64,000 bases of DNA, from contig OZ024764.1 of NCBI GenBank assembly GCA_964016885.1, forward strand, positions 26,660,001-26,724,000, read 5' to 3'. Under the pieces are notes generated by a model, which worked only from the letters and a program-made list of their open reading frames with translations, did no database searches and was not told where the DNA came from. The stretch comes from Eledone cirrhosa. Taxonomy: Eukaryota. Below, piece by piece: positions 24,503-50,160 of the stretch (position 1 is the first letter of the stretch; each line of letters opens with the position of its first letter). The position numbers were made by a program, and so were the translations under genes.

Positions 24503-24560
<58 letters not shown>

Positions 24561-25985: not shown

Positions 25986-27677
25986 TTGAATATGTCTAAC
26001 GTAGCAATAATTGGAGCTACTTAACCAAGTTTTCCCAACCTAGTCGATGTCACCTACTGGTTGGCGATTTAAACTGTTGGCTGGGACAATGACCAACTAA
26101 TCAGTCAGATTCGAACTCACTATGTCTGGCATATATTTTATATTTTATATTTGAATGACGTTCTGTAAGTAACCTGGTGGCTTAGATGGCAATACTGCTC
26201 GAATAGATGGCTTCTATTATGAAGTTATAAGTTCATTCCCTATCCAGGATTGTAGAATTAATTTTATTTAGTTATTATTTAATCAATTGTTTTAACAAAC
26301 AAATTATATCTATAAAACGCCAAATATAGTGAGTTCAAATCTGACTGACATGCATGGTATATATTTATGTTTCATTATACAACGACACAATACACAGGAA
26401 CTTATAAAGATATGTATATATTGTCCAGGAGTTTCGAGTTTAGTGGGAATTGGTACAACTCTCAATTGGAGCTAGTTCCTGCAAGATCAGCATAAATAAT
26501 GTTATACCTTTTCATGAAATCTTGCACACCCGATGTTTTATACATGATTATTTAAAGGTGAACAAAAACCAAAGAACATTGTGCAGCATTTCTCAACCTT
26601 TCTACCCATGTCGATCTCTTGAAATAGTTTTTATGTCTCAGGGATGCCCTGCATAAAATATACTTTTTCTATCTCTAGAGCAGTGGTTCCCAAATCGTGT
26701 GCTGCGAGATGAAACAAGATGAGCTGCAAAAGACTAAGATTAAGTTTTAAGATGTGAAAAATATAAAACTGAAATTTCATATAAAAGTTCAAATATAGCT
26801 ACAGCCACAAACCTAGGCTCCACACCCCGCAATGCAAAGGATAGTAAGATAGTACCAAGGCCTGACTCACCTCTTCCACTCCATTGAGACCTCTGCCATA
26901 CTTGGTCCCTGTACTGCTGATTTCCTCCATAAAGTCGGGAGGAAAGACGACAGGAGCTTCATGAGGAGGGGCGACTATTGTAGCAGGTGTCTCTGGCCTT
27001 GCTCCGAGGTAACGCTTTTACGTTTCTTCCACAGGTTGCGGCTGAGGGACCACTTAGACTGGGGTGAAGTGTCTGTCCCTCCCCCGACTTCTTACTTCTT
27101 TTTTTTTCTCATTTTCATTTTCTTTTCTCTTCTTGCTTATCTCTGCTATACCACGGCATCAAAAACATATATGATATGTGTATGTATGGTATAGGTGTAT
27201 TTATATTTAGGATAGTTATCAAAGGTAAATAGACTGGTTGAAGCAATAACAGTCTTGTTTATGTATATACACACATATATATATATATATATATATATCT
27301 GTTTGTTCTTGTATTTCCATAGAAAAGGTAAAGAAAAGAAGAATGCTCTATGTATTGTACAGAGCTATTTAATTACATAATAAACAACAGAATATAATTA
27401 TTCCATGCAAATAGACTTAGACTGGAAAACATTCAGACAGAGAAGAATGGATAATGAGCGTCGTAAGAGAAATTGGCCAACAATTAATATTAATGGAAAT
27501 GTAGAAGGATTTCATATTAGTGATATGAATGTTTCGTGTGATCACTGTGGAGCTTTGAAATTTAGAAATGAAAATTGTAACTGTTGTAATAAAGGAAAGG
27601 TTGTGTTGCCACCATTGCAAATATACCCTGAGAGACTGAGAAATCTCTTTGAAAGAGATTTCTCAGTCTCTCAGGGT

Positions 27678-28389
27678 ATATATTCCCGCCGTTGAAATAA
27701 AAATTTTAATAGAAAAGCGGCGGGAATATATGTTACAACCCAATCTATATATATTTAGGTTGTAACATATATTCCCGCCGTTGAAATAAAAATTTTAATA
27801 GAAAAACGGCGGGAATATATGTTACAGCCCAATCTATATATATTTGGGTTTTAACATATATTCCCGCCGTTGAAATAAACATTTTAATAGAAAAACGGCG
27901 GGAATATATGTTACAACCCAATCTACATATATTTGGGTTGTAACATATATTCCCGCCGTTGAAATAAAAATTTTAACATAAAAACGGCGGGAATATATAT
28001 TACAACCCAAACATATATAGGTTGGGTTGTAACATATATTCCCGCCGTTGAAATAAAAATTTTAACATAAAAACGGCGGGAATATATATTACAACCCAAA
28101 CATATATAGGTTGGGTTGTAACATATATTCCCGCCGTTTTTCTATTAAAATTTTTATTTCAACGGCGGGAATATATGTTACAACCCCAAAATATGTAGCT
28201 TGGATTGTAACATATATTCCCGCCGTTTTTCTATTAAAATTTTTATTTCAACGGCGGGAATATATGTTACAACTCAAATATATATAGATTGGGTTGTAAC
28301 ATATATTCCCGCCGTTTTTCTATTAAAATTTTTATTTCACCGGCAGGAATATGTTACAACCCAAATATATATATATTGAGTTGTAACAT
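27678..28389. repeat. 89-bp satellite of alternating inverted ~28-bp cores (8 units)
   Basis: ATTCCCGCCG at 27682, 27771 and 27860. Core TTGGGTTGTAACATATATTCCCGCCGTT alternates with its reverse complement. Confidence 0.96.
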
Positions 28390-29848
28390 GGGTTACATAT
28401 AAGGTCTCATTTTTTTTCTTTTCTTTCTTTCAGTTTTCTTCTTATCTCTAGATATAAATATATATACATAAGGTAACTTGGTAGAATTGTTAGAACATCA
28501 GATAGAATTCTTTGCAGTATTTTTCCAGTTCTTTACTCTGAGTTCAACTTTACCTTTCTTCCATTCAGTGTCGATAAGTCTTGAATATGTCTAACGTAGC
28601 AATAATTGGAGCTACTTAACCAAGTTTTCCCAACCTAGTCGATGTCACCTACTGGTTGGCGATTTAAAATGTTGGCTGCGACAATGACCAACTATTCAGT
28701 CAGATTCGAACTCACTATGTCTGGCATATATTTTATATTTTATATTTGAATGAAGTTCTGTAAGTAACCTGGTGGCTTAGATGGCAATACTGCTCGAATA
28801 GATGGCTTCTAGTTCATTCCCTATCCAGGATTGTAGAATTAATTTTATTTAGTTATTATTTAATCAATTGTTTTAACAAACAAATTATATCTATAAAACG
28901 CCAAATATAGTGAGTTCAAATCTGACTGACATGCATGGTATATATTTATGTTTCATTATACAGCGACACAATACACAGGAACTTATAAAGATATGTATAT
29001 ATTGTCCAGGAGTTTCGAGTTTAGTGGGAATTGGTACAACTCTCAGTTGGAGCTAGTCCCTGCAAGATCAGCATAAATAATGTTATACCTTTTCATGAAA
29101 TCTTGCACACCCGATATTTTATACATGATTATTTAAAGGTGAACAAAAACCAAAGAACATTGTGCAGCATTCTCAACCTTTCTACCCATGTCGATCTCTT
29201 GAAATAGTTTTTATGTCTCAGGGAAGCCCTGCATAAAATATACTTTTTCTATCTCTAGAGCAGTGGTTCCCAAATCGTGTGCTGAGAGATGAAACAAGAT
29301 GAGCTGCAAAAGACTAAGATTAAGTTTTATGATGTGAAAAATATAAAACTGAAATTTCATATAAAAGTTCAAATATAGCTACAGCCACAAACCTAGGCTC
29401 CACACCCCGCAATGCAGAGGATAGTAAGATAGTACCAAGGCCTGACTCACCTCTTCCACTCCATTGAGACCTCTGCCATACTTGGTCCCTGTACTGCTGA
29501 TTTCCTCCATAAAGTCGGGAGGAAAGACGACAGGAGCTTCATGAGGAGGGGCGACTATTGTAGCAGGTGTCTCTGGCCTTGCTCTGAGGTAACGCTTTTA
29601 CGTTTCTTCCACAGGTTGCGGCTGAGGGACCACTTAGACTGGGGTGAAGTGTCTGTCCCTCCCCCGACTTCTTACTTCTTTTTTTTTCTCATTTTCATTT
29701 TCTTTTCTCTTCTTGCTTATCTCTGCTATACCACGGCATCAAAAACATATATGATATATGTATGTATGGTATAGGTGTATTTATATTTAGGATAGTTATC
29801 AAAGGTAAATAGACTGGTTGGAGCAATAACAGTCTTGTTTATGTATGT

Positions 29849-29897
<49 letters not shown>

Positions 29898-30271
29898 TGT
29901 TCTTGTATTTCCATAGAAAAGGTAAAGAAAAGAAGAATGCTCTATGTATTGTACAGAGCTATTTAATTACATAATAAACAACAGAATATAATTATTCCAT
30001 GCAAATAGACTTAGAATGGAAAACATTCAGACAGAGAAGAATGGATAATGAGCGTCGTAAGAGAAATTGGCCAACAATTAATATTAATGGAAATGTAGAA
30101 GGATTTCATATTAGTGATATGAATGTTTCGTGTGATCACTGTGGAGCTTTGAAATTTAGAAATGAAAATTGTAACTGTTGTAATAAAGGAAAGGTTGTGT
30201 TGCCACCATTGCAAATATACCCTGAGAGACTGAGAAATCTCTTTGAAAGAGATTTCTCAGTCTCTCAGGGT

Positions 30272-30983
30272 ATATATTCCCGCCGTTGAAATAAAAATTT
30301 TAATAGAAAAACGGCGGGAATATATGTTACAACCCAATCTATATATATTTAGGTTGTAACATATATTCCCGCCGTTGAAATAAAAATTTTAATAGAAAAA
30401 CGGCGGGAATATATGTTACAGCCCAATCTATATATATTTGGGTTTTAACATATATTCCCGCCGTTGAAATAAACATTTTAATAGAAAAACGGCGGGAATA
30501 TATGTTACAACCCAATCTACATATATTTGGGTTGTAACATATATTCCCGCCGTTGAAATAAAAATTTTAACATAAAAACGGCGGGAATATATGTTACAAC
30601 CCAAACATATATAGGTTGGGTTGTAACATATATTCCCGCCGTTGAAATAAAAATTTTAACATAAAAACGGCGGGAATATATATTACAACCCAAACATATA
30701 TAGGTTGGGTTGTAACATATATTCCCGCCGTTTTTCTATTAAAATTTTTATTTCAACGGCGGGAATATATGTTACAACCCCAAAATATGTAGCTTGGATT
30801 GTAACATATATTCCCGCCGTTTTTCTATTAAAATTTTTATTTCAACGGCGGGAATATATGTTACAACTCAAATATATATAGATTGGGTTGTAACATATAT
30901 TCCCGCCGTTTTTCTATTAAAATTTTTATTTCACCGGCAGGAATATGTTACAACCCAAATATATATATATTGAGTTGTAACAT
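30272..30983. repeat. 89-bp inverted-core satellite (8 units)
   Basis: Near-identical to 27678-28389. Confidence 0.96.
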
Positions 30984-32442
30984 GGGTTACATATAAGGTC
31001 TCATTTTTTTTCTTTTCTTTCTTTCAGTTTTCTTCTTATCTCTAGATATAAATATATATACATAAGGTAACTTGGTAGAATTGTTAGAACATCAGATAGA
31101 ATTCTTTGCAGTATTTTTCCAGTTCTTTACTCTGAGTTCAACTTTACCTTTCTTCCATTCAGTGTCGATAAGTCTTGAATATGTCTAACGTAGCAATAAT
31201 TGGAGCTACTTAACCAAGTTTTCCCAACCTAGTCGATGTCACCTACTGGTTGGCGATTTAAAATGTTGGCTGCGACAATGACCAACTATTCAGTCAGATT
31301 CGAACTCACTATGTCTGGCATATATTTTATATTTTATATTTGAATGAAGTTCTGTAAGTAACCTGGTGGCTTAGATGGCAATACTGCTCGAATAGATGGC
31401 TTCTAGTTCATTCCCTATCCAGGATTGTAGAATTAATTTTATTTAGTTATTATTTAATCAATTGTTTTAACAAACAAATTATATCTATAAAACGCCAAAT
31501 ATAGTGAGTTCAAATCTGACTGACATGCATGGTATATATTTATGTTTCATTATACAGCGACACAATACACAGGAACTTATAAAGATATGTATATATTGTC
31601 CAGGAGTTTCGAGTTTAGTGGGAATTGGTACAACTCTCAGTTGGAGCTAGTCCCTGCAAGATCAGCATAAATAATGTTATACCTTTTCATGAAATCTTGC
31701 ACACCCGATATTTTATACATGATTATTTAAAGGTGAACAAAAACCAAAGAACATTGTGCAGCATTCTCAACCTTTCTACCCATGTCGATCTCTTGAAATA
31801 GTTTTTATGTCTCAGGGAAGCCCTGCATAAAATATACTTTTTCTATCTCTAGAGCAGTGGTTCCCAAATCGTGTGCTGAGAGATGAAACAAGATGAGCTG
31901 CAAAAGACTAAGATTAAGTTTTATGATGTGAAAAATATAAAACTGAAATTTCATATAAAAGTTCAAATATAGCTACAGCCACAAACCTAGGCTCCACACC
32001 CCGCAATGCAGAGGATAGTAAGATAGTACCAAGGCCTGACTCACCTCTTCCACTCCATTGAGACCTCTGCCATACTTGGTCCCTGTACTGCTGATTTCCT
32101 CCATAAAGTCGGGAGGAAAGACGACAGGAGCTTCATGAGGAGGGGCGACTATTGTAGCAGGTGTCTCTGGCCTTGCTCTGAGGTAACGCTTTTACGTTTC
32201 TTCCACAGGTTGCGGCTGAGGGACCACTTAGACTGGGGTGAAGTGTCTGTCCCTCCCCCGACTTCTTACTTCTTTTTTTTTCTCATTTTCATTTTCTTTT
32301 CTCTTCTTGCTTATCTCTGCTATACCACGGCATCAAAAACATATATGATATATGTATGTATGGTATAGGTGTATTTATATTTAGGATAGTTATCAAAGGT
32401 AAATAGACTGGTTGGAGCAATAACAGTCTTGTTTATGTATGT

Positions 32443-32483
<41 letters not shown>

Positions 32484-32584
32484 TGTTCTTGTATTTCCAT
32501 AGAAAAGGTAAAGAAAAGAAGAATGCTCTATGTATTGTACAGAGCTATTTAATTACATAATAAACAACAGAATATAATTATTCC

Positions 32585-33344
32585 ATGCAAATAGACTTAG
32601 AATGGAAAACATTCAGACAGAGAAGAATGGATAATGAGCGTCGTAAGAGAAATTGGCCAACAATTAATATTAATGGAAATGTAGAAGAATTTCATATTAG
32701 TGATATGAATGTTTCGTGTGATCACTGTGGAGCTTTGAAATTTAGAAATGAAAATTGTAACTGTTGTAATAAAGGAAAGGTAGTGTTGCCACCATTGCAA
32801 ATATACCCTGAGAGACTGAGAAATCTCTTTGAAAGAGGCCAGGAAGCAGTTGATTTCACAGAAACATCTGCAATTAAAACTACATTTATTTCACTTCATT
32901 TGGTGTTACCACCCGGCAGAGGCCCGTATAGATTTCATATTCAGGGTCAAACATATCAATACACACCCATCTCTGTAACCTGCAGAAAATACACCACAAT
33001 ATGGCCAGTTATATATTATTGATGGGAACGAAGGTGTGTAGCACAGATTGGAAGTACAACCAAATAATTGTTTCTGGCACAAGGCCAGCAATTACTGGTA
33101 CTTTATTCTATCGACCTCATAAGGATGAAAACAAAGTCAACCTTAGAGGGATTTGAACCCAGAACGTAAAGGGCCATAACCCTATGCTGCAAAGCATGGT
33201 GTCTGACGCTCTACCGATACTGCCAATCCACTGCCCTAGTCCCAACAAATAATGACTGCTCACCACAAAAAATGGCTATGATAAGAGAGGTGTTGCATGA
33301 ATATAATCCATATGTCGAAGTGTACAATACAATGCATGGCATCA
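32585..33344 (+). pseudogene. Helitron RepHel 5' part, interrupted at 33344
   Basis: Same as 17485-18244. The sequence resumes at 35946. Confidence 0.9.
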
Positions 33345-33892
33345 CAAATGAATATATATATATATACTACTAAAGTGTATGTAAAATTTTAAAATAAATA
33401 CTTAAATTCAATTTGTATAATTACACATACAATATGTTTTGTTGTAAAACCCTAAATAATGATTTAAGAAATGATGTCAATCTCTTTGTACAGAGAAAAA
33501 CAATTTATATATATGCATCGTGTGCGCGTGTATACTCCATTTAAGACAGCGAAAAACCTAGTACCTCCTTCAAAGAATGCCAAATAGTTTATGCCTAAGG
33601 TGTAACACTAATTAAGTTACTGGTATAGATATTTCAGTTGAACCCTGCTTCAAACATGCATATTATTATTATATATTTTCAAACACACTTACATACATTA
33701 TATTTATACACATAGAAATGTTAAAACTAAAGTATAATGATATAACAACAGTATATAATAGTTTTCTTCACTTTATTGAGATGCAATCGTTTTAAAGAAA
33801 AAACATGACAGTATAAGAAATATTTAATATGATAACATAATATTTCAGGTAGGATGGTGGTTTCTCTTTGAACTAATAATTGTTTCTACTTT

Positions 33893-34045
33893 AGGCACAA
33901 GGCCAGCAATTAACCAGTACATTACTGGTACTTTATTTTATCGACCCCGTAAGGATGAAAGGCAAAGTTAACCTCGGATCGTAAAGGGACGTAACTATGC
34001 TGGAAAGCATGGCGTCAGACCCTCTACCGATACTGCCAATTCACC
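33893..34045 (-). mobile_element. Nin/Deu-like SINE with B-box region deleted (paralog ~50708-50860)
   Basis: ACTGGTACTTTATTTTATCGACCCCGTAAGGATGAAAGGCAAAG...CTCTACCGATACTGCCAAT. Confidence 0.78.
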
Positions 34046-34244
34046 ATACAGTATAATTATACAAATATGCATATAGATAGCAATATATATACACTAATAT
34101 GTATGTACATATTTATACATATATACATATATATAGGGAGAGAGAGAGACACATGTATGTATATATATATACACATGCGTGTATGTATGTGTTTATGTAC
34201 ATTCTTCGGTATATATATATGAGTCACGGTTTATTACACATTGG

Positions 34245-34906
34245 AGACACAGAGAGAAAGAGTTGAAACGAGAGGTGAGAGAGTTGAAACAAGAGAGGAG
34301 AGAGTTGAAACGAGAAAAGAGAGAGAGAGTTGAAACGAGAGGAGAGAGAGAGAGAGTTGTAACGAGAGGAGAGAGAGAGAGAGAGTTGAAACGAGAGGAG
34401 AGAGAGTTGAAACGAGGAGAGAGTTGAAACAAGAGGGTGAGGGGAGAGAGGGGAGAGAGTGATGAAACGAGTCGGAGATAGAGTGTGAAAGAGAGAGAGA
34501 GAGGAAGAGAGAGAGAGAGAGGAAGAGAGAGAGAGAGGAAGAGAGAGAGAGAAAGAGAGAGAGAGAGGAAGAGAGAGAGAGGAAGAGAGAGAGAGGAAGA
34601 GGGAGAGGGGGGATGAAACAAGAGGGTGAGGGATGAAACAAGAGAGAGAGGGGAGAGAAAGAGAGAGGGGAGAGAAAGAGAGAGGGGAGAGAAAGAGAGA
34701 GAGAGAGAGAGAGAACGAATTGAAACAAGAGAGAGATGAAACAAGTGAGGGATTAGAGTGTTGAAACAAGAGAGAGAGGAAGAGAGAGAGAGAGCAAGAT
34801 GGAACGAGAGAGAGAGAGCGAGATGAAATGAGAGCGAGATGAAACGAGAGAGAGAGAGAGTGAGATGAAATGAGAGAGAGAGAGAGCGAGAGAGAGAGCG
34901 AGATGA

Positions 34907-34943
<37 letters not shown>

Positions 34944-35928
34944 TGAAATGAGACAGAGAGAGCGAGATGAAACGAGAGAGAGAGAGAGCGAGATGAAATG
35001 AGAGAGTGAGTGCGAGATGAAATGAGAGAGAGTGAGAGCGACATGAAATGAGAGAGAGAGAGCGAGATGAAACGAGAGAGAGAGAGAGCGAGATGAAATG
35101 AGAGAGAGTCAGAGCGAGATGAAATGAGAGAGTGAGAGCGAGATGAAATGAGAGAGAGAGAGCGAGATGAAATGAGAGAGAGTGAGAGCGAGATGAAATG
35201 AGAGAGAGAGAGCGAGATGAAATGAGAGAGAGAGGAAACGAGACTAGAGAGCGAGATGAAACAGGAGAGAGAGAGCGAGATGAAACAGGAGAGATCGAGA
35301 TGAAACGAGAGGGAGAGAGAGATGAAATGAGAGAGCGAGAGAGAGATAGAGGGAGATGAAACGACAGAGAGAGAGACAGATGAAACGAGAGAGAGAAATA
35401 GAGATGAAACGAGAGAGAGTGATGAAACGAGAGAGAGGAAGAGAGAGATGGAACGAGAGAGAGGAGGAGAGAGATGGAACGAGAGAGAGGAAGACAGAGA
35501 TGAAATGAGAGAGAGGAAGACAGAGATGAAACGAGAGAGAGAGAGAGCGAGATGAAACGAGAGAGAGAGAGCGCGAGATGAAACTCTGTCATGTAATGTT
35601 ATGGACATATCTGCCCCTGGGGCTAATAATTGTCATGTAATGTTATGGTCATCTCTGCCCCTGTGGTTAATAATTCTGTCATGTAATGTTATGGTCATGT
35701 CTGCACCTGTGGCTAATAAATCTGTCATGTAATGTTATGGTCATCTCTGCCCCTGTGGCTAATAATTCTGTCATGTAATGTTATGGACATCTCTGCCCCT
35801 GTGGCTAATAATTCTGACATGTAATGTTATGGACATCTCTGCCCCGGTGGCTAATAATTCTGACATGTAATGTTATGGACATCTCTGCCCCTGTGGCTAA
35901 TAATTCTGACATGTAATGTTATGGACAT
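34245..35928 (-). repeat. Composite satellite, reverse orientation (GA-rich block plus ~7.5 46-bp units)
   Basis: Cap GTGAGGGATTAGAGTGTTGAAAC at ~34745; 46-mers at ~35586-35928. Confidence 0.96.
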
Positions 35929-35945
35929 TGCTATCTTGTTTCATC

Positions 35946-37119
35946 TCAAACAGCAAAGTGCAAGAAGAGAAAATTGTCGTGTACAGAACTGTGAATTAAG
36001 ATTTAGAAGAGGATCAGATATGAGCTGCTCTAATTTACCAACTAGTAATGATAGCTGTTGTTTTGTGGGGGATTGAGGGCACACCACCTGTACAAAGAGA
36101 TATTATCATCTTTCCTAAAGACCATCCTCCTCAGAAAATACCACATAATGCATGCCACTTGGACCTCATGACCGACCGATAATGGTGAATTTTGGTGGCA
36201 TAGTGCCATGGAGAGGAATGTAGGACCTGTGTTTGCAATAGACTGACAATGCAGGAGTATTACATATACTGTATAGCATATAGAGGAGGATTTAGTGCAA
36301 TATATAGGGCAGGTAAATTATTTTAGCAGTATTTAGTGGATGCCTATATGAAAGTAGAGGGATGCAGGCTTCAATATTTGAGGAACAATCAAGCCCAATT
36401 GTGAGTGGATGAGTATAATGGTTTAATGAATTATCTAAACAGATGATAACACTGAGCCTTAAAAAATGAAGACAAGATAAGAAACAGAGAAGACATTGAC
36501 AGAATCGTGTCAGCAGAAATACCTGCATTGGAAGATGATCCAGTACTACATGAGCAGGTTTAAAAGTTTATGATCCACAGGCCATGTGGTTCTGGAAACC
36601 CTTTTCCCCCATTTATACAAAATGGATTTTTCAAAAAGAACTATCCAAAAACCTACAGAAGGGAAACATTATTGAACCTAAATGGATACCCAGAGTACAG
36701 GAGGTGCAAGACAGGAACTGCAGTGTAAATTGGATGACATTCAGTAGATAACAGGAATGTTATGCCATTTAATGCCTTTTTGCTTAAGAAATATTGTGCA
36801 CATATTAATGTTGAAGTTTGCGCTTCTGTAAAAAGTGTCAAGTACCTCTTTAAATATGTTACATGGGGCATGATTGTACATCTATAGAAGTAACGAATAA
36901 TGCATTACCTAATGAGGCTCAGAACCAACACAACCATGATGAAATAAGAACCTATCTTTGTTGCAGGTATGTGTCTCAACCAGAAGCAGTGTCGTGTCTC
37001 TCGGAATTTAAGCTTCATGGTACATCACATACAGTATACAGCCTAGCCACACACCTGGAGAACAAACAGAGTTTACTTTCAAAGAGGCAATGCTCAGGTT
37101 GTGGTAGAAATGCAGGGAC
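35946..37119 (+). pseudogene. Helitron RepHel continuation, helicase C-terminus deleted
   Basis: Colinear with 18242-19416, then jumps via ACC microhomology to the equivalent of ~20061. Confidence 0.9.
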
Positions 37120-40100
37120 CTAAACACAATAAAATGTCACCTGTGCTACCAAAACTACCACAGGAACTCTGTCGGCATCAGCAAGGCTCAAGCCGAAAGG
37201 CTTCAATACTAGACCTGTAATCAGGGCCACTTTACCTCCGACGACCAGCTTTCTACCGAGTGTGTGTTGATGGAGGGGACATGGGACCAGCAAAGTCCTA
37301 GGAGTAGAGACTAGTAAATAATAAACGGTCCTAGCTATGTTAAGAATATATATAAGAAAAATGTTCTATACATTTAAGAAGACAAGAGAAATAAATATTT
37401 ACCTCTTTCATGTAGGTAATATAGCGGTGTTATAAAAGTATAATAACTGATGCAGGTAGTTTGTTTCAAACTATAACACATATAACTCTATCAGTGAAGC
37501 CCTTTAGTATAGGTCAACTGGGAAACTATAACACATATAACCCTATCAGTGAAGCCCTCTGGGAAACTATAACACATATAACTCTATCAGTGAAGCCCTT
37601 TAGTATAGGTCAACTGGGAAACTATAACACATATAACCCTATCAGTGAAGTCCTTTAGTATAGGTCAACTGGGAAATTATAACACATATAACCCTATCAG
37701 TGAAGTCCTTTAGTATAGGTCAACTAACAGAAGTATTACGGGTATGGAAAAAATTCTAAATAAGCCTACAACAGTCATTGCGGGCCACTCTGACTGGTCA
37801 GGTGGGCTCGATTGTGGCCCGCGGGCCGCCTGTTGCACGCCCCTCCTTTAGACAGAATATCTATCACTGTTAAGTAATACTGTGATCTGTCGGCTAACTA
37901 CATTTCCCAGCCTGTGGCGTTTGGGGGAGTCGGGATACTGACTGCGAGATTCCTATCTTCACTGGCGGCTAGCCTGACGAAGGTGACTGGTGAAGCTCGT
38001 GAGGGCACTTGGTTGTTCCAGCTCCTCAGCCTCGCCATCGCCCGGGGTAACGCTGCAGACGTGCTGGCTTGCCTAAAAAATCATTAGAGAGGTTTCCCAG
38101 TGCTCCTCGCGATACTGTTATCTTTTGCTCTAGTAGCAGCTCGTTTGTCCACCCCTTTCGCCTGCCTTTGGTTGTATGTCGTCCTAGATGTGTGTATTAC
38201 CTGCTTGTGTGTTGTATGTGGTCCTAGATGTGTGTATTGCCTGCTTATGTGGTCCTAGATGTATGTATTACCTGCTGGTGTGTTGTATGTGGTCCCAGAT
38301 GTGTGGATTACCTGTTTTTGTGTTGTATGTGGTCCCAAATGTGTGTGCTACCCGCTTCTGTGATTTGTTGTTTCTTCTTTCTCTCTTCCGAGAAACAATC
38401 CTGTATTTTTTTAATCTATTCCATGCGTTAAGTAATTAGCAGCAACAACAAACTGATTTTCAGTTGTAAAAAGAATCTTTAAACCTTCACCATTTACATT
38501 AACACATACCATACGTTGTCCCAGCCACAAATAAACAGTAAAAAAAACTTACTTTGCGGTTAAATTCTTCACAATTAAAAGAAAAATATTTCTAACACGT
38601 TTCTAGACAACACCAAGTTTACACCTTCAATATCCGGTAAAAGTAAAAACATATTCTGGAGACATTTAACGAAACGAAACTATGTAAAGAAAAACGAAAA
38701 TTAAACGAAGACAAATAGTAAATTTTAATTTTTATTAAATAAAATACCAGTAATTCACTGCAGTAGATTTAATCAACTTTACTCTCTCTGCACGAAAGAA
38801 GAAAAAAATTCCTGACTTAGTGCTTAATATATAGAGAGGGGGAGAGTTTGGTGTTACTTCATATAGAGAGGGGTATTGGAAGAGAGTGCCGTGTAGTAGA
38901 TATAGAGAGGGAGAGAGTGTGTGCTAATTGATATAAAGAGGGGGATTTGCACCCCCCCCCCGCCTAGTAAAATTCTGAAATGCTTCGACCTCCCTGTACA
39001 TATATATATATATATAGTATACACACACAGACATATATATAGTAAATAAATGTGTGTGTGTATCAGTGGTCCCCAAACTTTTCTGTTCCACACCCCTCCT
39101 CTAAAATATGTTTATGTTCCCCTTTAATATAAAAACAATCCGAGTATTCTGAAAGTATTATTACTGTAATATAAAGTAGAAACCCTTTATTTAAACAAAG
39201 CTACGATGCAGCGATGATCAAAACAAACTTCTCGTAGGTGCTGCCAAGCGGGGAAAAGTGGATGTATAATGATGATGATATATATATATATGCCCCACCC
39301 TTGCAAACAGGGAAAAGCAGACGTAAAATGAAAATGATGATATATATATAGATAGATAGATATGTATATATATATATTTATACTTATACGTCATGGTGGC
39401 TACAGGTGCCAAGAGGAAGAAGCCGGTCAAATCCTCTGATATTTGTTTATCTTCCTTTCCTTTGTACATATATATATATAGTATGTGTGTGTGTATGAAG
39501 ATGTATGACCCCTAGCAAGCCAAACTACAGTTACTCCCCAACATGGAGAGCAAATTAAAACATTACCTGTTAGAGAGGAACGTGAAATGAATTGTTAGTG
39601 AACTACCGGTGTCACAGTAATTATGTTACCGGTGTAACTATTTCTGTTTACCTTATTTTTAAATGACACTCCTATATTAGTTTAGTGACCTTTCAATTCA
39701 AATAAATTCTTGATGATGATTGAACTCGCATCGGAGTAGCCCAACGCCTTGGCCTCCGCGTGTGTGAGCCACATAAATGCTCTCAACGACATAGTGAGAA
39801 GAAGCCTGGACGCAGCTGAATTTCCATCTCAACTGGAGTCAGCAGGCTTAGGCCGCGGAGATGGCAAGCACCCCGAGGGAATCACCCTCTTCCCATTCGA
39901 AGGAGGTAGATCCACAAACCCCAGCATCGCTGCCCGTCTCGCAGATGAGCATAAAATAAACAAATTCCGGTGTTTGTCCTGGAGCCTCTTCTAAGCACCA
40001 GCCGCCGTCGAGACCCCGGGCCAACTTGGACCCATTACAGCCGAGCTCCTCCGCAACATCGCAGTGTCTGTGGCCCGTCTGAGGATGGAGTCCCACGAGG

Positions 40101-40250
40101 TTGGATGCCTGTTGCAGCAGGTGTTACTGTCCTTACATATATATACGTAAATGTTCCCTTGACTGCTATTTCTAGCATATATTAATAGACACTTTAGAAA
40201 CAGCAGCTAAAAATCAAGAAACAACAGTGTGTGTCTGTATATATATACAC

Positions 40251-40317
<67 letters not shown>

Positions 40318-40425
40318 AGCCAAAGACACGCACACACGAACATACACATACACACAGGTGTATGTCTGCGTGTATGTATATATATGTGTGTGTCTTTTCG
40401 TTCTCTCTCTCTCTCTCTCTCTCTC

Positions 40426-40488
<63 letters not shown>

Positions 40489-40700
40489 GTCAGTGATCCC
40501 CCTCGCAACCTTTAATTAAACAAACCTGCGATGAGGCGATGATCAAAATAAACACCAAAGTATAAACAAACAGCCCATAGGTGCTGCCGGATACACGATA
40601 ACATGTGTAGACGAAGTAAAACTTTTATTACTGTAATATAAAGTAGAAACCCTTTATTTAAACAAAGCTGCGATGCAGCGATGATCAAAACAAACTTCAA

Positions 40701-41721
40701 ATAACATGTGTATACGAAGTGTATCTGGAAGCTTGGTCGTATTATATGACTTTCAAATTGACCCCTATTATATTCAAATTATCCCCTGTGGGGCGTGCAC
40801 CCCACGTTGAGAATCCCTCATAAATAAATATATGTGAGTGTGTTGCTATGACTGCTATTTCTAGCAGGTTTACTGCAGTCCTGTAGACGCACAACAAAAA
40901 CCGGAAGTGGCAGCCATTAAAAAACTTTGGCTTAAAATCAGGCAAAAGTTTTTTAACAATTTGCCAAGAAAGATAACTCTTGTCTTACTTAATCGCAAAA
41001 ATCGAGGCAAAAATTTTGTGGGTGTACAGTTTGTTTGGTGTATTTGACTGCTATTTCTAGCATGTATGGACACTTTAGAAATAGCAGCGAAAAACGGAAA
41101 ACAGCAGAAAGAAGGACACACACCTATATATATATATATATATACCAGCTATACACTCACCCATACATATATATATATACCAGCTATACACACACCCATA
41201 TCTACGTATAGGTGTGTGTGCGCGCGTGTATGTATATATAAATATATATATTTAAATGTATATATCTGTGCATATATATATGTATATATATATATACGTG
41301 TGTGTCCTTCTTTCTTATGTTTCCCGTGTTTCGCTGCTATTTCTAAAGTGTCCATATATGCTAGAAATAGCAGTCAAATACACCAAACAAACTGCACACC
41401 CGCAAAATTTTTTGCCTCGATTTTTGCGATTAAGTAAGACAAGAGTTATCTTTCTTGGCAAATTGTTAAAAAACTTTTGCCTGATTTTAAGCCAAAGTTT
41501 TTTAATGGCTTCCACTTCCGGTTTTTGTTGTGCGTCTACAGGACTGCAGTAAACCTGCTAGAAATAGCAGTCATAGCAACACACTCACATATATTTATTT
41601 ATGAGGGATTCTCAACGTGGGGTGCACGCCCCACAGGGGATAATTTGAATATAATAGGGGTCAATTTGAAAGTCATATAATACGACCCAACTCCCTGTTA
41701 CACTTCGTATACACATGTTAT
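40701..41721. repeat. Long inverted repeat: arms ~40701-41140 and ~41282-41721, short microsatellite spacer
   Basis: Mirrored ORFs 40742..40945(-) and 41477..41680(+); arms read as reverse complements. Confidence 0.95.
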
Positions 41722-43909
41722 CGTGTATCTGGCAGCACCTGCGAGAAGTTTGTTTACATTTTGGGGTTTGCTTTGATGATCGCTGCATCTCAGCTTTGTT
41801 TAAATAAAGGGTTTCTACTTTATATTACAGTAATAACACTTTTACAAGACTCGGATTGTTTTTATATTAAAGGGGGACATGTTTTTTAAACTCTGAACTC
41901 AGCATCTTTCTGTTGTTCTCCGGGATTCTAGCAAAGTATAAAAAAAAATATATATATATAGATATATATATATATATCTGGCAGTCAACCTCAGACTCGA
42001 AAAAGCCGCCGCTAATCGTGATCGTTGGGGTTATAATTCGACTAAAGTGCTTCCACTGGGCACCATTAGCTGGTTGTGATCATTGGAGAATTCTTTCTGC
42101 GCTGAAAGAGCCTAGGACTAAAAGATATATATATAGATGTCGAAACGGCAGTAGCACAGCCGTTGGGGTCCTGAATATTTTCACATCTATATATGTGTGT
42201 GTATTCTGCGACATTTATAATTACATAAGCAAGCATATTTGAATAACAAAATTTGAGGTTTAAATACTTTATTTTTTACCAATAACATAGAGAAAGGCAT
42301 GAACAACACCACATGTTAATTACTTTAATATTGAAAGTAGGCTTATAAATATTAAAAAAGCAGATGTTTGTATCTTTCATGGTGGTCTGGTGGGTGATAC
42401 CAGAGATGGTGGTAGTCATGGTTTCGGTTTCAATCCTGGTCATGGGTTACATATAAGGTCTCATTTTTCTTTCTTTCAGTTTTCTTCTTATCTCTAGATA
42501 TAAATATATATACATAAGGTAATTTGGTAGAATTGTTAGAACATCAGATAGAATTCTTTGCAGTATTTTTCCAGTTCTTTACTCTGAGTTCAACTTTACC
42601 TTTCTTCCATTCGGTGTCGATAAGTCTTGAATATGTCTAACGTAGCAATAACTGGAGCTACTTAACCAAGTTTTCCCAACCTAGTCGATGTCACCTACTG
42701 GTTGGCGATTTAAACTGTTGGCTGGGACAATGACCAACTAATCAGTCAGATTCCAACTCACTATGTCTGGCATATATTTTATATTTTATATTTGAATGAA
42801 GTTCTGTAAGTAACCTGGTGGCTTAGATGGCAATACTGCTCGAATAGATGGCTTCTATTATGAAGTTATAAGTTCATTCCCTATCCAGGATTGTAGAATT
42901 AATTTTATTTAGTTATTATTTAATCAATTGTTTTAACAAACAAATTATATCTATAAAACGCCAAATATAGTGAGTTCAAATCTGACTGACATGCATGGTA
43001 TATATTTATGTTTCATTATACAGCGACACAATACACAGGAACTTATAAAGATATGTATATATTGTCCAGGAGTTTCGAGTTTAGTGGGAATTGGTACAAC
43101 TCTCAATTGGAGCTAGTCCCTGCAAGATCAGCATAAATAATGTTATACCTTTTCATGAAATCTTGCACACCCGATATTTTATACATGATTATTTAAAGGT
43201 GAACAAAAACCAAAGAACATTGTGCAGCATTTCTCAACCTTTCTACCCATGTCGATCTCTTGAAATAGTTTTTATGTCTCAGGGAAGCCCTGCATAAAAT
43301 ATACTTTTTCTATCTCTAGAGCAGTGGTTCCCAAATCGTGTGCTGCGAGATGAAACAAGATGAGCTGCAAAAGACTAAGATTAAGTTTTAAGATGTGAAA
43401 AATATAAAACTGAAATTTCATATAAAAGTTCAAATATAGCTACAGCCACAAACCTAGGCTCCACACCCAGCAATGCAGAGGATAGTAAGATAGTACCAAG
43501 GCCTGACTCACCTCTTCCACTCCATTGAGACCTCTGCCATACTTGGTCCCTGTACTGCTGATTTCCTCCATAAAGTCGGGAGGAAAGACAACAGAAGCCT
43601 CATGAGGAGGGGCAACTATTGTAGCAGGTGTCTCTGGCCTTGTTCCGAGGTAACGCTTTTACGTTTCTTCCACAGGTTGCGGCTGAGGGACCACTTAGAC
43701 TGGGGTGAAGTGTCTGTCCCTCCCCCGACTTCTTACTTCTTTTTTTTTCTCATTTTCATTTTCTTTTCTCTTCTTGCTTATCTCTGCTATACCACGGCAT
43801 CAAAAACATATATAATATGTGTATGTATGGTATAGGTGTATTTATATTTAGGATAGTTATCAAAGGTAAATAGACTGGTTGGAGCAATAACAGTCTTGTT
43901 TATGTATAT

Positions 43910-44006
<97 letters not shown>

Positions 44007-44379
44007 TGTTCTTGTATTTCCATAGAAAAGGTAAAGAAAAGAAGAATGCTATATATATTGTACAGAGCTATTTAATTACATAATAAACAACAGAATATAA
44101 TTATTCCATGCAAATAGACTTAGACTGGAAAACATTCAGACAGAGAAGAATGGATAATGAGCGTCGTAAGAGAAATTGCCAACAATTAATATTAATGGAA
44201 ATGTAGAAGAATTTCATATTAGTGATATGAATGTTTCGTGTGATCACTGTGGAGCTTTGAAATTTAGAAATGAAAATTGTAACTGTTGTAATAAAGGAAA
44301 GGTTATGTTGCCACCATTGCAAATATACCCTGAGAGACTGAGAAATCTCTTTGAAAGAGATTTCTCAGTCTCTCAGGGT

Positions 44380-45180
44380 ATATATTCCCGCCGGTGAAAT
44401 AAAAATTTTAATAGAAAAACGGCGGGAATATATGTTACAACCCAACCTACATATTTTTGGGTTGTAACATATATTCCCGCCGTTGAAATAAATATTTTAA
44501 TAGAAAAACGGCGGGAATATATGTTACAACCCAATCTATATATATTTGAGTTGTAACATATATTCCCGCCGTTGAAATAAAAATTTTAATAGAAAAACGG
44601 CGGGAATATATGTTACAACGCAATCTATATATATTTGGGTTGTAACATATATTCCCGCCGTTGAAATAAAAATTTTAATAGAAAAACGGCGGGAATATAT
44701 GTTACAACCCAACCTATATATGTTTGGGTTGTAATATATATTCCCGCCGTTTTTCTGTTAAAATTTTTATTTCAACGGCGGGAATATATGTTACAACCCA
44801 AATATATGTAGATTGGGTTGTAACATATATTCCCGCCGTTTTTCTATTAAAATTTTTATTTCGACGGCGGGAATATATGTTACAACCCAAATATATATAG
44901 ATTGCGTTGTAACATATATTCCCGCCGTTTTTCTATTAAAATTTTTATTTCAACGGCGGGAATATATGTTACAACCCAAATATATGTAGATTGGATTGTA
45001 ACATATATTCCCGCCGTTTTTCTATTCAAATTTTTATTTCAACGGCGGGAATATATGTTACAACTCAAATATATATAGATTGGGTTGTAACATATATTCC
45101 CGCCGTTTTTCTATTAAAATTTTTATTTCACCGGCGGGAATATGTTACAACCCAAATATATATATATTGAGTTGTAACAT
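44380..45180. repeat. 89-bp inverted-core satellite (9 units)
   Basis: Same cores; 4 forward and 5 reverse long spacers. Confidence 0.96.
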
Positions 45181-46654
45181 GGGTTACATATAAGGTCTCA
45201 TTTTTTTTCTTTTCTTTCTTTCAGTTTTCTTCTTATCTCTAGATATAAATATATATACATGAGGTAACTTGGTAGAATTGTTAGAACATCAGATAGAATT
45301 CTTTGCAGTATTTTTCCAGTTCTTTACTCTGAGTTCAACTTTACCTTTCTTCCATTCAGTGTCGATAAGTCTTGGATATGTCTAACGTAGCAATAACTGG
45401 AGCTACTTAACCAAGTTTTGCCAACCTAGTCGATGTCACCTACTGGTTGGCGATTTAAACTGTTGGCTGGGACAATGACCAACTAATCAGTCAGATTCGA
45501 ACTCACTATGTCTGGCATATATTTTATATTTTATATTTGAATGAAGTTCTGTAAGTAACCTGGTGGCTTAGATGGCAATACTGCTCGAATAGATGGCTTC
45601 TATTATGCAGTTATAAGTTCATTCCCTATCCAGGATTGTAGAATTAATTTTATTTAGTTATTATTTAATCAATTGTTTTAACAAACAAATTATATCTATA
45701 AAACGCCAAATATAGTGAGTTCAAATCTGACTGACATGCATGGTATATATTTATGTTTCATTATACAGCGACACAATACACAGGAACTTATAAAGATATG
45801 TATATATTGTCCAGGAGTTTCGAGTTTAGTGGGAATTGGTACAACTCTCAATTGGAGCTAGTCCCTGCAAGATCAGCATAAATAATGTTATACCTTTTCA
45901 TGAAATCTTGCACACCCGATATTTTATACATGATTATTTAAAGGTGAACAAAAACCAAAGAACATTGTGCAGCATTTCTCAACCTTTCTACCCATGTCGA
46001 TCTCTTGAAATAGTTTTTATGTCTCAGGGAAGCCCTGCATAAAATATACTTTTTCTATCTCTAGAGCAGTGGTTCCCAAATCGTGTGCTGCGAGATGAAA
46101 CAAGATGAGCTGCAAAAGACTAAGATTAAGTTTTAAGATGTGAAAAATATAAAACTGAAATTTCATATAAAAGTTCAAATATAGCTACAGCCACAAACCT
46201 AGGCTCCACACCCCGCAATGCAAAGGATAGTAAGATAGTACCAAGGCCTGACTCACCTCTTCCACTCCATTGAGACCTCTGCCATACTTGGTCCCTGTAC
46301 TGCTGATTTCCTCCATAAAGTCGGGAGGAAAGACAACAGGAGCCTCATGAGGAGGGGCGACTATTGTAGCAGGTGTCTCTGGCCTTGCTCCGAGGTAACG
46401 CTTTTACGTTTCTTCCACAGGTTGCGGCTGAGGGACCACTTAGACTGGGGTGAAGTGTCTGTCCCTCCCCCGACTTCTTACTTCTTTTTTTTTCTCATTT
46501 TCATTTTCTTTTCTCTTCTTGCTTATCTCTGCTATACCACGGCATCAAAAACATATATAATATGTGTATGTATGGTATAGGTGTATTTATATTTAGGATA
46601 GTTATCAAAGGTAAATAGACTGGTTGGAGCAATAACAGTCTTGTTTATGTATAT

Positions 46655-46699
<45 letters not shown>

Positions 46700-47073
46700 T
46701 GTTCTTGTATTTCCATAGAAAAGGTAAAGAAAAGAAGAATGCTATATATATTGTACAGAGCTATTTAATTACATAATAAACAACAGAATATAATTATTCC
46801 ATGCAAATAGACTTAGACTGGAAAACATTCAGACAGAGAAGAATGGATAATGAGCGTCGTAAGAGAAATTGGCCAACAATTAATATTAATGGAAATGTAG
46901 AAGGATTTCATATTAGTGATATGAATGTTTCGTGTGATCACTGTGGAGCTTTGAAATTTAGAAATGAAAATTGTAACTGTTGTAATAAAGGAAAGGTTAT
47001 GTTGCCACCATTGCAAATACACCCTGAGAGACTGAGAAATCTCTTTGAAAGAGATTTCTCAGTCTCTCAGGGT

Positions 47074-47785
47074 ATATATTCCCGCCGTTGAAATAAATAT
47101 TTTAATAGAAAAACGGCGGGAATATATGTTACAACCCAATCTATATATATTTAAGTTGTAACATATATTCCCGCCGTTGAAATAAAAATTTTAATAGAAA
47201 AACGGCGGGAATATATGTTACAACGCAATCTATATATATTTGGGTTGTAACATATATTCCCGCCGTTGAAATAAAAATTTTAATAGAAAAACGGCGGGAA
47301 TATATGTTACAACCCAACCTACATATGTTTGGGTTATAATATATATTCCCGCCGTTTTTCTGTTAAAATTTTTATTTCAACGGCGGGAATATATGTTACA
47401 ACCCAAATATATGTAGATTGGGTTGTAACATATATTCCCGCCGTTTTTCTATTAAAATTTTTATTTCGACGGCGGGAATATATGTTACAACCCAAATATA
47501 TATAGATTGCGTTGTAACATATATTCCCGCCGTTTTTCTATTAAAATTTTTATTTCAACGGCGGGAATATATGTTACAACCCAAATATATGTACATTGGA
47601 TTGTAACATATATTCCCGCCGTTTTTCTATTCAAATTTTTATTTCAACGGCGGGAATATATGTTACAACTCAAATATATATAGATTGGGTTGTAACATAT
47701 ATTCCCGCCGTTTTTCTATTAAAATTTTTATTTCACCGGCGGGAATATGTTACAACCCAAATATATATATATTGAGTTGTAACAT
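47074..47785. repeat. 89-bp inverted-core satellite (8 units)
   Basis: Same cores; 3 forward and 5 reverse long spacers. Confidence 0.96.
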
Positions 47786-49369
47786 GGGTTACATATAAGG
47801 TCTCATTTTTTTTCTTTTCTTTCTTTCAGTTTTCTTCTTATCTCTAGATATAAATATATATACATGAGGTAACTTGGTAGAATTGTTAGAACATCAGATA
47901 GAATTCTTTGCAGTATTTTTCCAGTTCTTTACTCTGAGTTCAACTTTACCTTTCTTCCATTCAGTGTCGATAAGTCTTGAATATGTCTAACGTAGCAATA
48001 ACTGGAGCTACTTAACCAAGTTTTGCCAACCTAGTCGATGTCACCTACTGGTTGGCGATTTAAACTGTTGGCTGGGACAATGACCAACTAATCAGTCAGA
48101 TTCGAACTCACTATGTCTGGCATATATTTTATATTTTATATTTGAATGAAGTTCTGTAAGTAACCTGGTGGCTTAGATGGCAATACTGCTCGAATAGATG
48201 GCTTCTATTATGCAGTTATAAGTTCATTCCCTATCCAGGATTGTAGAATTAATTTTATTTAGTTATTATTTAATCAATTGTTTTAACAAACAAATTATAT
48301 CTATAAAACGCCAAATATAGTGAGTTCAAATCTGACTGACATGCATGGTATATATTTATGTTTCATTATACAGCGACACAATACACAGGAACTTATAAAG
48401 ATATGTATATATTGTCCAGGAGTTTCGAGTTTAGTGGGAATTGGTACAACTCTCAATTGGAGCTAGTCCCTGCAAGATCAGCATAAATAATGTTATACCT
48501 TTTCATGAAATCTTGCACACCCGATATTTTATACATGATTATTTAAAGGTGAACAAAAACCAAAGAACATTGTGCAGCATTTCTCAACCTTTCTACCCAT
48601 GTCGATCTCTTGAAATAGTTTTTATGTCTCAGGGAAGCCCTGCATAAAATATACTTTTTCTATCTCTAGAGCAGTGGTTCCCGAATCGTGTGCTGCGAGA
48701 TGAAACAAGATGAGCTGCAAAAGACTAAGATTAAGTTTTATGATGTGAAAAATGTAAAGCTGAAATTTCATACAAAAGTTCAAATATAGCTACAGCCACA
48801 AACCTAGGCTCCACACCCCGCAATGCAGAGGATAGTAAGATAGTACCAAGGCCTGACTCACCTCTTCCACTCCATTGAGACCTCTGCCATACTTGGTCCC
48901 TGTACTGCTGATTTCCTCCATAAAGTCGGGAGGAAAGATGACAGGAGCCTCATGAGGAGGGGCGACTATTGTAGCAGGTGTCTCTGGCCTTGCTCCGAGG
49001 TAACGCTTTTACGTTTCTTCCACAGGTTGCGGCTGAGGGACCACTTAGACTGGGGTGAAGTGTCTGTCCCTCCCCCGACTTCTTACTTCTTTTTTTTTCT
49101 CCTTTTCATTTTCTTTTCTCTTCTTGTTTATCTCTGCTATACCACGGCATCAAAAACATATATGATATATGTATGTATGGTATAGGTGTATTTATATTTA
49201 GGATAGTTATCAAAGGTAAATAGACTGGTTGGAGCAATAACAGTCTTGTTTATGTATATACATATATATATATATTTATATGTTTGTACTTGTATTTCCA
49301 TAGAAAAGGTAAAGAAAAGAAGAGTGCTCTATGTATTGTACAGAGCTATTTAATTACATAATAAACAAC

Positions 49370-50115
49370 AGAATGGAAAACATTCAGACAGAGAAGAATG
49401 GATAATGAGCGTTGTAAGAGAAATTGGCCAACAATTAATATTAATGGAAATGTAGAAGAATTTCATATTAGTGATATGAATGTTTCGTGTGATCACTGTG
49501 GAGCTTTGAAATTTAGAAATGAAAATTGTAACTGTTGTAATAAAGGAAAGGTTGTGTTGCCACCATTGCAAATATACCCTGAGAGACTGAGAAATCTCTT
49601 TGAAAGAGGCCAGGAAGCAGTTGATTTCACAGAAACATCTGCAATTAAAACTACATTTATTTCACTTCATTTGGTGTTACCACCCGGCAGAGGCCCGTAT
49701 AGCTTTCATATTCAGGGTCAAACATATCACTACACCCCCATCTCTGTAACCTGCAGAAAATACACCACAATATGGCCAGTTATATATTATTGATGGGAAC
49801 GAAGGTATGTAGCACAGATTGGAAGTACGTCCAAATAATTGTTTCTAGCACAAGGCCAGCAATTACTGGTACTTTATTCTATCGACCTAATAAGGATGAA
49901 AACAAAGTCAACCTTGGAGGGATTTGAACCCAGAACGTAAAGGGACATAACCCTATGCTGTAAAGCATGGTGTCTGGCGCTCTACCGATACTGCCAATCC
50001 ACTGCCCTAGTACCAACAAATAATGACTGCTCACCACAAAAAATGGCTATGATAAGAGAAGTGTTGCATGAATGTAATTCATATGTCGAAGTGTACAATA
50101 CAATGCATGGCATCA
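49370..50115 (+). pseudogene. Helitron RepHel 5' part, interrupted at the same GGCATCA site
   Basis: Same junction as 33344 (GGCATCA|CAAATGAATA). Confidence 0.9.
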
Positions 50116-50119
50116 CAAA

Positions 50120-50160
<41 letters not shown>

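Follow-up and report, generated by a model that had tools for sequence, protein, structure and literature searches.

Palindromic tandem arrays of a putatively transposon-derived 89-bp unit in Eledone cirrhosa and the origin of their orientation patterns

Do short repeats that alternate in direction keep flipping, or do they preserve the trace of a single past event? This question is raised by four tandem arrays of an 89-bp unit in the genome of Eledone cirrhosa (3.0 Gb), all of which lie within a 64,000-bp stretch of contig C25 (positions 26,660,001-26,724,000) that we refer to as the window. A preliminary description of the window had proposed repeated inversion, shufflon-like in geometry, between inverted copies of a core sequence. 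We examined the four arrays together with all other arrays of this kind in the assembly and with the dispersed element from which the unit appears to derive. We consider it quite probable that these are palindromic tandem arrays of a unit composed of a MITE (miniature inverted-repeat transposable element) and flanking sequence, and that their orientation patterns are fossils of one inversion, combined with gain, loss and conversion of units, rather than a product of ongoing flipping.

Array anatomy and unit orientation

Tandem Repeats Finder placed the four 89-bp arrays of the window at 27678-28389 (8.0 copies), 30272-30983 (8.0), 44380-45180 (9.0) and 47112-47785 (7.6). The order within a unit is core, spacer A, inverted core, spacer b; the core is 28 bp long, and the inverted cores are separated by only 11-22 nt. 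A motif scan of the window returned 58 cores (at most 5 mismatches) and 33 A spacers (at most 4 mismatches), all of them confined to the four arrays. Core direction alternated strictly along each array, and the A spacers formed a run of forward (F) copies followed by a run of reverse (R) copies. Parsed in full, the arrays are as follows.

27678-28387, + strand: array 1, built of 89-bp units; A spacers 5F+3R; element order BABABAbAbabab
27961-28021 and 28050-28110: axis unit of array 1 (A* c* b*), two copies
30272-30981, + strand: array 2, tandem paralogue of array 1, 2594 bp downstream; A spacers 5F+3R
44380-45178, + strand: array 3; A spacers 4F+5R; palindrome centre at spacer b; marked unit inverted (b* C* a*) at 44713-44773
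47074-47783, + strand: array 4; A spacers 3F+5R; marked unit inverted at 47318-47378

Array 4 matches array 3 except that the first 89-bp unit is missing. Each array was seen to open with forward units and to end in reverse ones, in agreement with the earlier statement that the arrays are quasi-palindromes with inverted cores. Each is a plain palindrome, and the "moving axis" of that statement is simply the unequal length of the two arms. Array 1, taken whole, folds as a single long DNA hairpin of -313.7 kcal/mol; the mean of 20 shuffled sequences was -75.3 kcal/mol (z = -35), and none of the 20 was as stable.

The unit at the axis is marked by an A variant, AACATAAA, by the core variant ATATTAC and by the spacer b sequence ACATATATAGG. 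It occurs forward and twice in arrays 1 and 2, and reverse-complemented and once in each of arrays 3 and 4. The preliminary description had reported a ~28-bp core alternating in direction, A spacers of 5F+3R, 5F+3R, 4F+5R and 3F+5R, and a marked segment lying forward at ~27973-28021 and in reverse at ~44710-44765. Our scan gave the identical spacer pattern and placed the marked unit at 27961-28021 and 44713-44773, so that what had been observed was confirmed in every detail.

We then turned to the whole genome. The exact core was found 682 times, compared with no match for the reversed control pattern, and 672 of these 682 cores lie inside arrays that carry the junctions described below. When up to 3 mismatches were allowed, the number rose to 1830, of which 1343 were inside arrays and ~487 elsewhere. 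A 32-nt sequence from the left junction and another from the right junction each returned exactly 88 matches (42 forward and 46 reverse in each case), and all 88 arrays were retrieved and parsed for spacer order. They are distributed over three chromosomes, with 56 on C25 (26.47-29.07 Mb of the 29.35-Mb contig), 18 on C18 and 14 on C20; their lengths range from 353 to 1332 bp, and together they occupy 67,731 bp.

In all 88 arrays the A spacers run forward and then reverse with exactly one switch (436 forward and 327 reverse copies), and 0 of the 763 is out of order. Forward arms have 2-12 units and reverse arms 2-5, and the two lengths occur in 22 (F,R) combinations. The centre of the palindrome takes two forms. 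In most arrays A*, the marked form of spacer A, stands there, and the sequence of elements is ...B C A* c* b* C a... (type 1); in a group that includes arrays 3 and 4 of the window its place is taken by b*, the marked form of spacer b, and the elements read ...A c B* C* a* c b... (type 2). A type-1 centre becomes exactly a type-2 centre when its three-spacer segment (A* c* b* C a) is inverted between the inverted cores on either side, and reverse-complementing the C18 form of A* (...aacagaaa) yields precisely the inverted a* (tttctgtt...). The difference between arrays 3 and 4 and arrays 1 and 2 is best explained by one inversion between inverted cores, or by an equivalent strand switch. An in-register 89-bp deletion was also considered as the sole origin of the b-centred arrays; it was rejected, since all three marks, in A, core and b, appear in reverse complement.

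How often has the axis been inverted? Of the 88 arrays, 57 have the marked unit in forward orientation and 23, all on C25, in reverse; 8 lack it, and no array has it in both orientations. On a FastTree phylogeny of 290+650 bp (940 bp) of flanking sequence, with orientation changes reconstructed by Fitch parsimony, a single change between forward and reverse was needed, and the reverse arrays grouped with three arrays that had lost the marked unit. The only irregular order of spacer b among the 88 arrays, AbAb, is that of arrays 1 and 2, in which the axis unit has been copied over the neighbouring unit with the length unchanged at 710 bp; these arrays differ from their closest relatives (e.g., L001) only in that overwritten unit next to the axis. 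Given that the flank tree requires a single change, one ancestral inversion together with unit gain, loss and conversion suffices for the assembly and likely explains every orientation pattern in it. This is the very outcome that the preliminary description had named as incompatible with its own proposal of repeated inversion, which is further left unsupported by the lack of any out-of-order A spacer and by the restriction of the inverted state to one clade of 23 C25 arrays.

The arrays vary in other respects as well. Forward arms are expanded in L026 (C18; 1332 bp, 12 units) and L035 (C20; 1243 bp, 11 units), where the reverse units number the usual 3. Eight C20 arrays form a local subfamily, recognisable by a core lacking 2 nt, which the parser read as a 59-nt gap.

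Donor of the unit and the junction that holds the arrays

The preliminary description had called for the donor of the 89-mer to be located, for instance in a MITE or a Foldback element, and a dispersed MITE family of about 80 bp indeed shares the core. An exact core match outside the arrays, on C13, belongs to a solo hairpin consisting of core, 24-nt loop and inverted core within (TA)n. The exact loop of this element has no other copy in the genome, and the family was recovered only by a BLAST-type search. With the 83-nt solo element as query, 389 first-look candidates were obtained, and each of the 40 that were scored aligned to 76 or more of its 83 nt with 87-100% identity (80 match rows, as both strands were counted), and the matches were spread over many chromosomes, on numbered contigs from C1 to C28 and on the unplaced C1714. 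We retrieved 21 copies, which are 77-81 bp long and have 20 distinct flanks (two rows are identical) that are unrelated to one another. Terminal inverted repeats with arms of 28-29 bp are present in 21 of 21 copies; TA flanks 19 of 21 on either side and all 21 on the right, which would fit Tc1/mariner-type targets. Thus the solo element has the terminal inverted repeats, the target-site duplication and the small, non-coding, dispersed copies of a MITE. Members of the family (4774-4856 of L038, and L074-L093) often lie within (TA)n.

By sequence comparison, the array core appears to be the terminal inverted repeat of this TA-flanked MITE, spacer A its loop and spacer b its TA-rich flank. The alignment of forward spacer A to the MITE loop scored 11; shuffles averaged 2.1, with 0.2% of 2000 reaching that score, and in reverse orientation the spacer did not align to the loop. 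Spacer b is TA-rich, like the usual flanks of the family. The 89-mer would then consist of a complete 80-bp MITE and 11 bp of flank, and the ~487 core-like matches outside the arrays are consistent with a few hundred solo MITEs. Spacer b flips along with spacer A, so that the relationship between the arms is one of whole units duplicated in inverted form. On the same ground, as spacer b is flank, an origin of the arms from separate MITE insertions of opposite orientation was considered and ruled out.

The arrays occupy a specific position within a larger repeated structure, whose parts are listed here.

25794-27657, 28387-30251 and 30981-32837, + strand: segment X-H5' (X; 1.86 kb), tandem triplicate found by self-comparison
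42441-44359, 45178-47053 and 47783 onward: segment X-H5' in the duplicate block
20055-34300, + strand: segmental duplication of ~14-17 kb, holding arrays 1 and 2
37112-51106: paralogue of the 20055-34300 block, holding arrays 3 and 4, 94-97% identity
27621-27681: perfect 30+1+30 palindrome (61 nt, single central G) at the left junction of array 1
30215-30275, 44323-44383 and 47017-47077: equivalent palindromes
27384-27657, + strand: N-terminal fragment of a Helitron Rep/Hel open reading frame (ORF), truncated at ...LRNLFER, where palindrome and array set in
29978-30251, and in the second block ending at 44359 and 47053: matching truncated Helitron ORFs
32564-33022, + strand: uninterrupted Helitron ORF (…LFERGQEAVDF…) in the third copy of X, a site without an array
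5106-5534, 17464-17922 and 49365-49793: other uninterrupted Helitron ORF copies
19489-19839: Pif1_2B domain (29.2 bits, cut-off 23.9), downstream in another Helitron copy

One array sits at each internal junction of the X triplicate, and the sequence upstream of the first X copy (25794) is unrelated. To the left of every array lies the Helitron ORF reading ...CDHCGALKFRNENCNCCNKGKVVLPPLQIYPERLRNLFER. Native ORF sequence extends to 27657, and 27658-27681 are an inverted copy of the preceding 24 nt. This copy is nucleated at a small native inverted repeat, CTCTTT-G-AAAGAG, and the uninterrupted paralogues show how the native sequence continues. The palindrome ends in ATAT, and with these same four bases the array begins, in mid-core; at its right end the array again stops mid-core (...GTTGTAAC) and enters X through a shared CAT. 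Microhomology is therefore found at both presumed template switches, ATAT from palindrome to array and CAT from array to X. Given that the arrays stand at the internal X junctions behind a snap-back palindrome, they are the filler of a tandem-duplication junction, with the signature of a 3′ end folding back and then switching templates at microhomologies.

Both junctions are identical in 88 of 88 arrays, and no second insertion site was evident. These common flanks indicate that the arrays share one origin and were spread by segmental duplication, not by transposition. The exact palindrome has 81 copies in the genome, each beside an array junction.

The array-bearing regions are C25 26.47-29.07 Mb, C18 34.94-35.74 Mb and C20 26.83-27.23 Mb, and on all three chromosomes runs of 2-4 arrays occur at a spacing of 2.5-2.8 kb. 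Blocks with forward-axis and reverse-axis arrays alternate ~14.6-17 kb apart on C25, with pairs repeating every ~50-125 kb, and the blocks change strand past 28.65 Mb. This block pattern suggests that a large higher-order amplification took place near the end of the chromosome.

The Helitron assignment of the left flank rests on a homology search. The N-terminal ORF is 54% identical (E = 1.8e-29) to P0001, a protein of 1530 aa with Helitron_like_N (PF14214) and PIF1 (PF05970) domains; this match, together with the Pif1_2B domain, provides the Helitron_like_N and helicase components of a Rep/Hel protein, and the window copies are decayed. Only ~2.4 kb separate the Helitron N-terminus from Pif1_2B in the window, as against 1530 aa in P0001, and the window copy thus appears to be a decayed, internally deleted fragment. 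A non-LTR (long terminal repeat) retrotransposon is inserted beside a Helitron fragment; its ORF (14576-17452, minus strand) is stop-free over 958 aa and encodes an endonuclease, a reverse transcriptase (RVT_1, E = 7.3e-32) and a PHD finger.

How might such a junction have formed? A single origin of the composite is probable, at a 3′ end that had broken or stalled within the Helitron fragment. The native CTCTTT-G-AAAGAG hairpin would have let this end fold back and copy 24 nt of its own sequence; by way of the ATAT microhomology it would then have switched to hairpin-prone MITE-array sequence and copied that in both orientations. Re-entry 1.86 kb upstream through the CAT microhomology would have left a tandem duplication with a templated palindromic insert, and segmental duplication would then have carried the composite to three chromosomes. 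On C25, a single out-of-register exchange between inverted cores would have inverted the three-spacer axis segment, shifting the centre from spacer A to spacer b, and unequal exchange or slippage may have altered the arm lengths to the present 2-12 forward and 2-5 reverse units.

Several observations weigh against this reading. A palindrome without an array was not found among the 81 exact genome copies. The donor MITE family was found, and no donor array with other flanks was found among the genome cores, so that one complex event and stepwise growth in place would both be compatible with what is seen. Template switching does not predict that the array starts and ends at almost the same core register (…GTAAC followed by ATATATT…), nor that GGGT can be placed on both sides of the array. 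The same-register ends and GGGT could instead reflect insertion into a pre-existing junction, or a circular intermediate. In addition, the unit counts of individual arrays rest on one assembly, and the decayed N-terminal ORF pieces of the window gave no Pfam match to Helitron_like_N.

Alternative explanations

The strongest competitor, which we regard as possible though rather unlikely, is growth in place. A MITE or short MITE array that had entered a plain tandem-duplication junction, or already stood at one, would have become tandem there and then been inverted and duplicated through hairpin-induced slippage or unequal exchange. The MITE family does sit preferentially in TA-rich sequence, the GGGT on both sides and the shared core register of the two ends fit an insertion that split a junction, and unit numbers do change over time, as the 22 (F,R) combinations illustrate. 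However, no array-free palindrome junction survives, as 81 of 81 exact palindromes abut an array; moreover, both array ends fall inside a terminal inverted repeat, about halfway along it, and do not coincide with the TA-flanked ends of a MITE.

Helitron activity could in principle account both for the 89-mer, as an internal tandem repeat carried by a Helitron, and for the 2.6-kb periodicity, through rolling-circle amplification. The left flank is Helitron Rep/Hel ORF, and the runs of 2-4 arrays at 2.5-2.8 kb on C18, C20 and C25 also speak for it. Helitrons and Helentrons are described as carrying repeats and making them tandem in the pertinent part of a review (PMC12628747). Here, by contrast, the array does not occupy a non-coding internal region but breaks into coding sequence at a snap-back palindrome, and the Helitron copy itself is decayed and internally deleted. 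The array abuts truncated coding sequence and does not appear as non-coding cargo between Helitron termini, which were not mapped. We therefore find this origin improbable.

Ongoing or recurrent inversion between the inverted cores, whether by a shufflon-like switch or by recombinational flip-flop, would reshuffle the spacers. Inverted 28-bp cores only 11-22 nt apart are a good substrate for exchange, the array folds as a near-perfect hairpin, and the axis segment did invert once. If exchange between cores were frequent, however, isolated flips of a single A spacer, the easiest event, should be the commonest, and their absence among 763 disfavours frequent flipping. Orientation also tracks the phylogeny, with one change. 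Shufflon-like geometry had been suggested for these arrays, but every one of the 88 has a single F-to-R switch, and none has a permuted order. A recombinase was not apparent among 19 stop-to-stop ORFs of at least 130 aa at 4-51 kb, only part of which were put through Pfam, and the earlier remark that none is encoded here agrees with this. Pfam was applied to 32564-33022, 17464-17922, 18070-18477, 14576-17452 and five shorter frames, with the endonuclease and reverse transcriptase of a long interspersed nuclear element as the sole match; the remaining ORFs of the 19, judged by eye, are Helitron-like fragments or low-complexity frames. Taken together, these results make continuing inversion very improbable.

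Equally doubtful is the insertion here of a Foldback-type transposon with arms of tandem subrepeats. Its appeal lies in the inverted subrepeat arms of unequal length (2-12 forward, 2-5 reverse), a feature also reported for Tetris in the corresponding section of the Drosophila virilis study (PMC4079207), and in the derivation of the subrepeat from a transposon terminal inverted repeat. Such an element should nonetheless show independent insertions with target-site duplications, and the arrays share both flanks in 88 of 88 cases, with no sign of a second insertion site. No "empty" site with contiguous flanks exists, the flanks being the two ends of a duplicated segment, and there is no clear target-site duplication beyond the ambiguous GGGT.

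Palindromes are a recognised failure mode of long-read libraries, yet an assembly artefact from chimeric fold-back reads is barely credible here, since the 88 copies combine consistent junctions with independent substitutions and unit numbers, raw restriction-site-associated DNA (RAD) reads of three further individuals cover the 89-mer array with continuous depth across the array-X boundary, and contigs of other runs cover the array. The RAD reads are MseI-cut and end at the TTAA in every A spacer, so that their fragments measure at most 89 bp; they fit many of the 88 paralogues and both palindrome strands. The uninterrupted Helitron site coexists with the array in these individuals, with 95, 101 and 26 reads continuing from 27657 into native sequence. 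Logan k-mer contigs of the other runs break inside the array, and none spans it. In organism A (X1), contigs extend over the final ~170 nt of array 3 and, in separate matches, over segment X, in no case with 31 nt on both sides of the boundary; in organism B (X2), only the high-copy element at 45269-45370 is covered. This very high-copy element lies just to the right of each array (paralogous copy at 28475-28580), and its word depth spikes in organisms A and B as well. Its loose ends, ...GAGTTCAAATCC..., are presumably tRNA-like, which would suggest a tRNA-derived short interspersed nuclear element.

Other tandem repeats surround the arrays. A 46-bp satellite (unit CAGAATTATTAGCC...) alternates with 24-27-bp CT/GA-rich repeats at 1-4068, 34318-35928 and 51060-64000 of the window. 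Its arrays switch strand head-to-head at ~3839 and ~61253, where GC and AT skew flip accordingly, and thus the 46-bp satellite also forms palindromic junctions. The segmental duplication further contains short tandem arrays with periods of 55 and 40 bp (20411-20779 and 37468-37725; 21163-21354 and 38171-38362).

Relation to known systems and meaning

Shufflons of the R64 type are multiple inversion systems in which short inverted repeats flank short invertible segments. The arrays share this layout of short inverted repeats around short segments. They differ from shufflons in that no recombinase was seen among the 19 ORFs inspected, no orders are permuted (0 of 763 spacers; one change on the flank tree), no segment is coding and the host is a eukaryote. 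The arrays are head-to-tail tandem monomers of 89-bp period, like a satellite (7.6-9 copies in the window), but they do not form long homogeneous arrays of many kb to Mb; instead, 88 short arrays lie in a shared 2.6-kb and 14-17-kb higher-order repeat. We conclude that they are MITE-derived palindromic satellite-like arrays, fixed at a rearrangement junction and amplified with their surroundings, and not a shufflon-like switch. As such they belong to two known kinds, MITE-derived tandem repeats and fold-back templated-insertion junctions.

Transitions from MITE to satellite via stem-loop formation are described for Xenopus and other animals in the part of a review that deals with them (PMC12628747). 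As that part presents them, in Xenopus Xstir and miDNA4 a miniature inverted-repeat element likewise supplies the monomer, the stem-loop acts as driver and the borders show AT-rich microhomologies (PMC12628747). By contrast, the monomer here would comprise the entire 80-bp MITE with 11 bp of flank rather than an internal repeat, and the array is palindromic, does not lie inside a mobile MITE and has one genomic junction in 88 copies. In Drosophila virilis, according to the relevant section of the source, foldback elements with tandem-repeat arms seed satellites (PMC4079207). The Tetris foldback element and the TIR-220 satellite of that section likewise combine inverted tandem-repeat arms related to MITE terminal repeats with amplification in repeat-rich chromatin (PMC4079207); Tetris is dispersed and mobilisable and has internal sequence and 220-bp repeats, whereas the present arrays show no sign of mobility and no middle domain, and their arms abut at a spacer.

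A study of oysters is reported to have found satellite-like repeats carried by Helentrons or Helitrons, although in our case the array truncates a Rep/Hel ORF at a rearrangement junction and does not lie between termini. As far as the review's account goes, such repeats are, as here, physically tied to an element of the Helitron family (PMC12628747).

With respect to the junction, the closest parallels come from DNA breaks, where fold-back inverted duplications and templated insertions are reported from human cells as well as from yeast. At yeast breaks, as described in the portion of the source that covers them, fold-back inverted duplications span 5-34 bp, and insertions of two inverted pieces from one locus derive preferentially from fragile sequence (PMC11724301). 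The present junction likewise has a short inverted copy (24-30 nt, as compared with 5-34 bp), nucleated at the native CTCTTT-G-AAAGAG, with a microhomology hairpin and microhomology (ATAT, CAT) at each switch, and an insert that appears templated, in two inverted pieces, from fragile, structure-forming sequence. While those junctions at breaks are experimental or somatic events, the present one is a fixed germline structure that has been amplified 88-fold and whose donor locus was not found.

It might be supposed that the hairpin arrays are active, either as a source of hairpin RNA and small RNAs that silence the 80-bp MITE, or as structure-prone fragile sites that in some cells still flip or break and so drive the amplification at the end of C25. 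We think this improbable; if it were true and the arrays were transcribed, each would give rise to a long hairpin RNA of MITE terminal repeats. The arrays reveal no new mechanism and no programmed switch, and represent an ordinary, though tidy, birth of a satellite. Their value is that the donor MITE, the monomer, the palindrome, the break-repair-like junction, the 88-fold spread and the countable later events, with one inversion and numerous gains and losses of units, can all be read in one genome. They may therefore serve, in teaching and calibration, as an example of how hairpin-forming transposons seed satellite-like repeats and as a gauge of the rates of inversion versus unit turnover in palindromic arrays.

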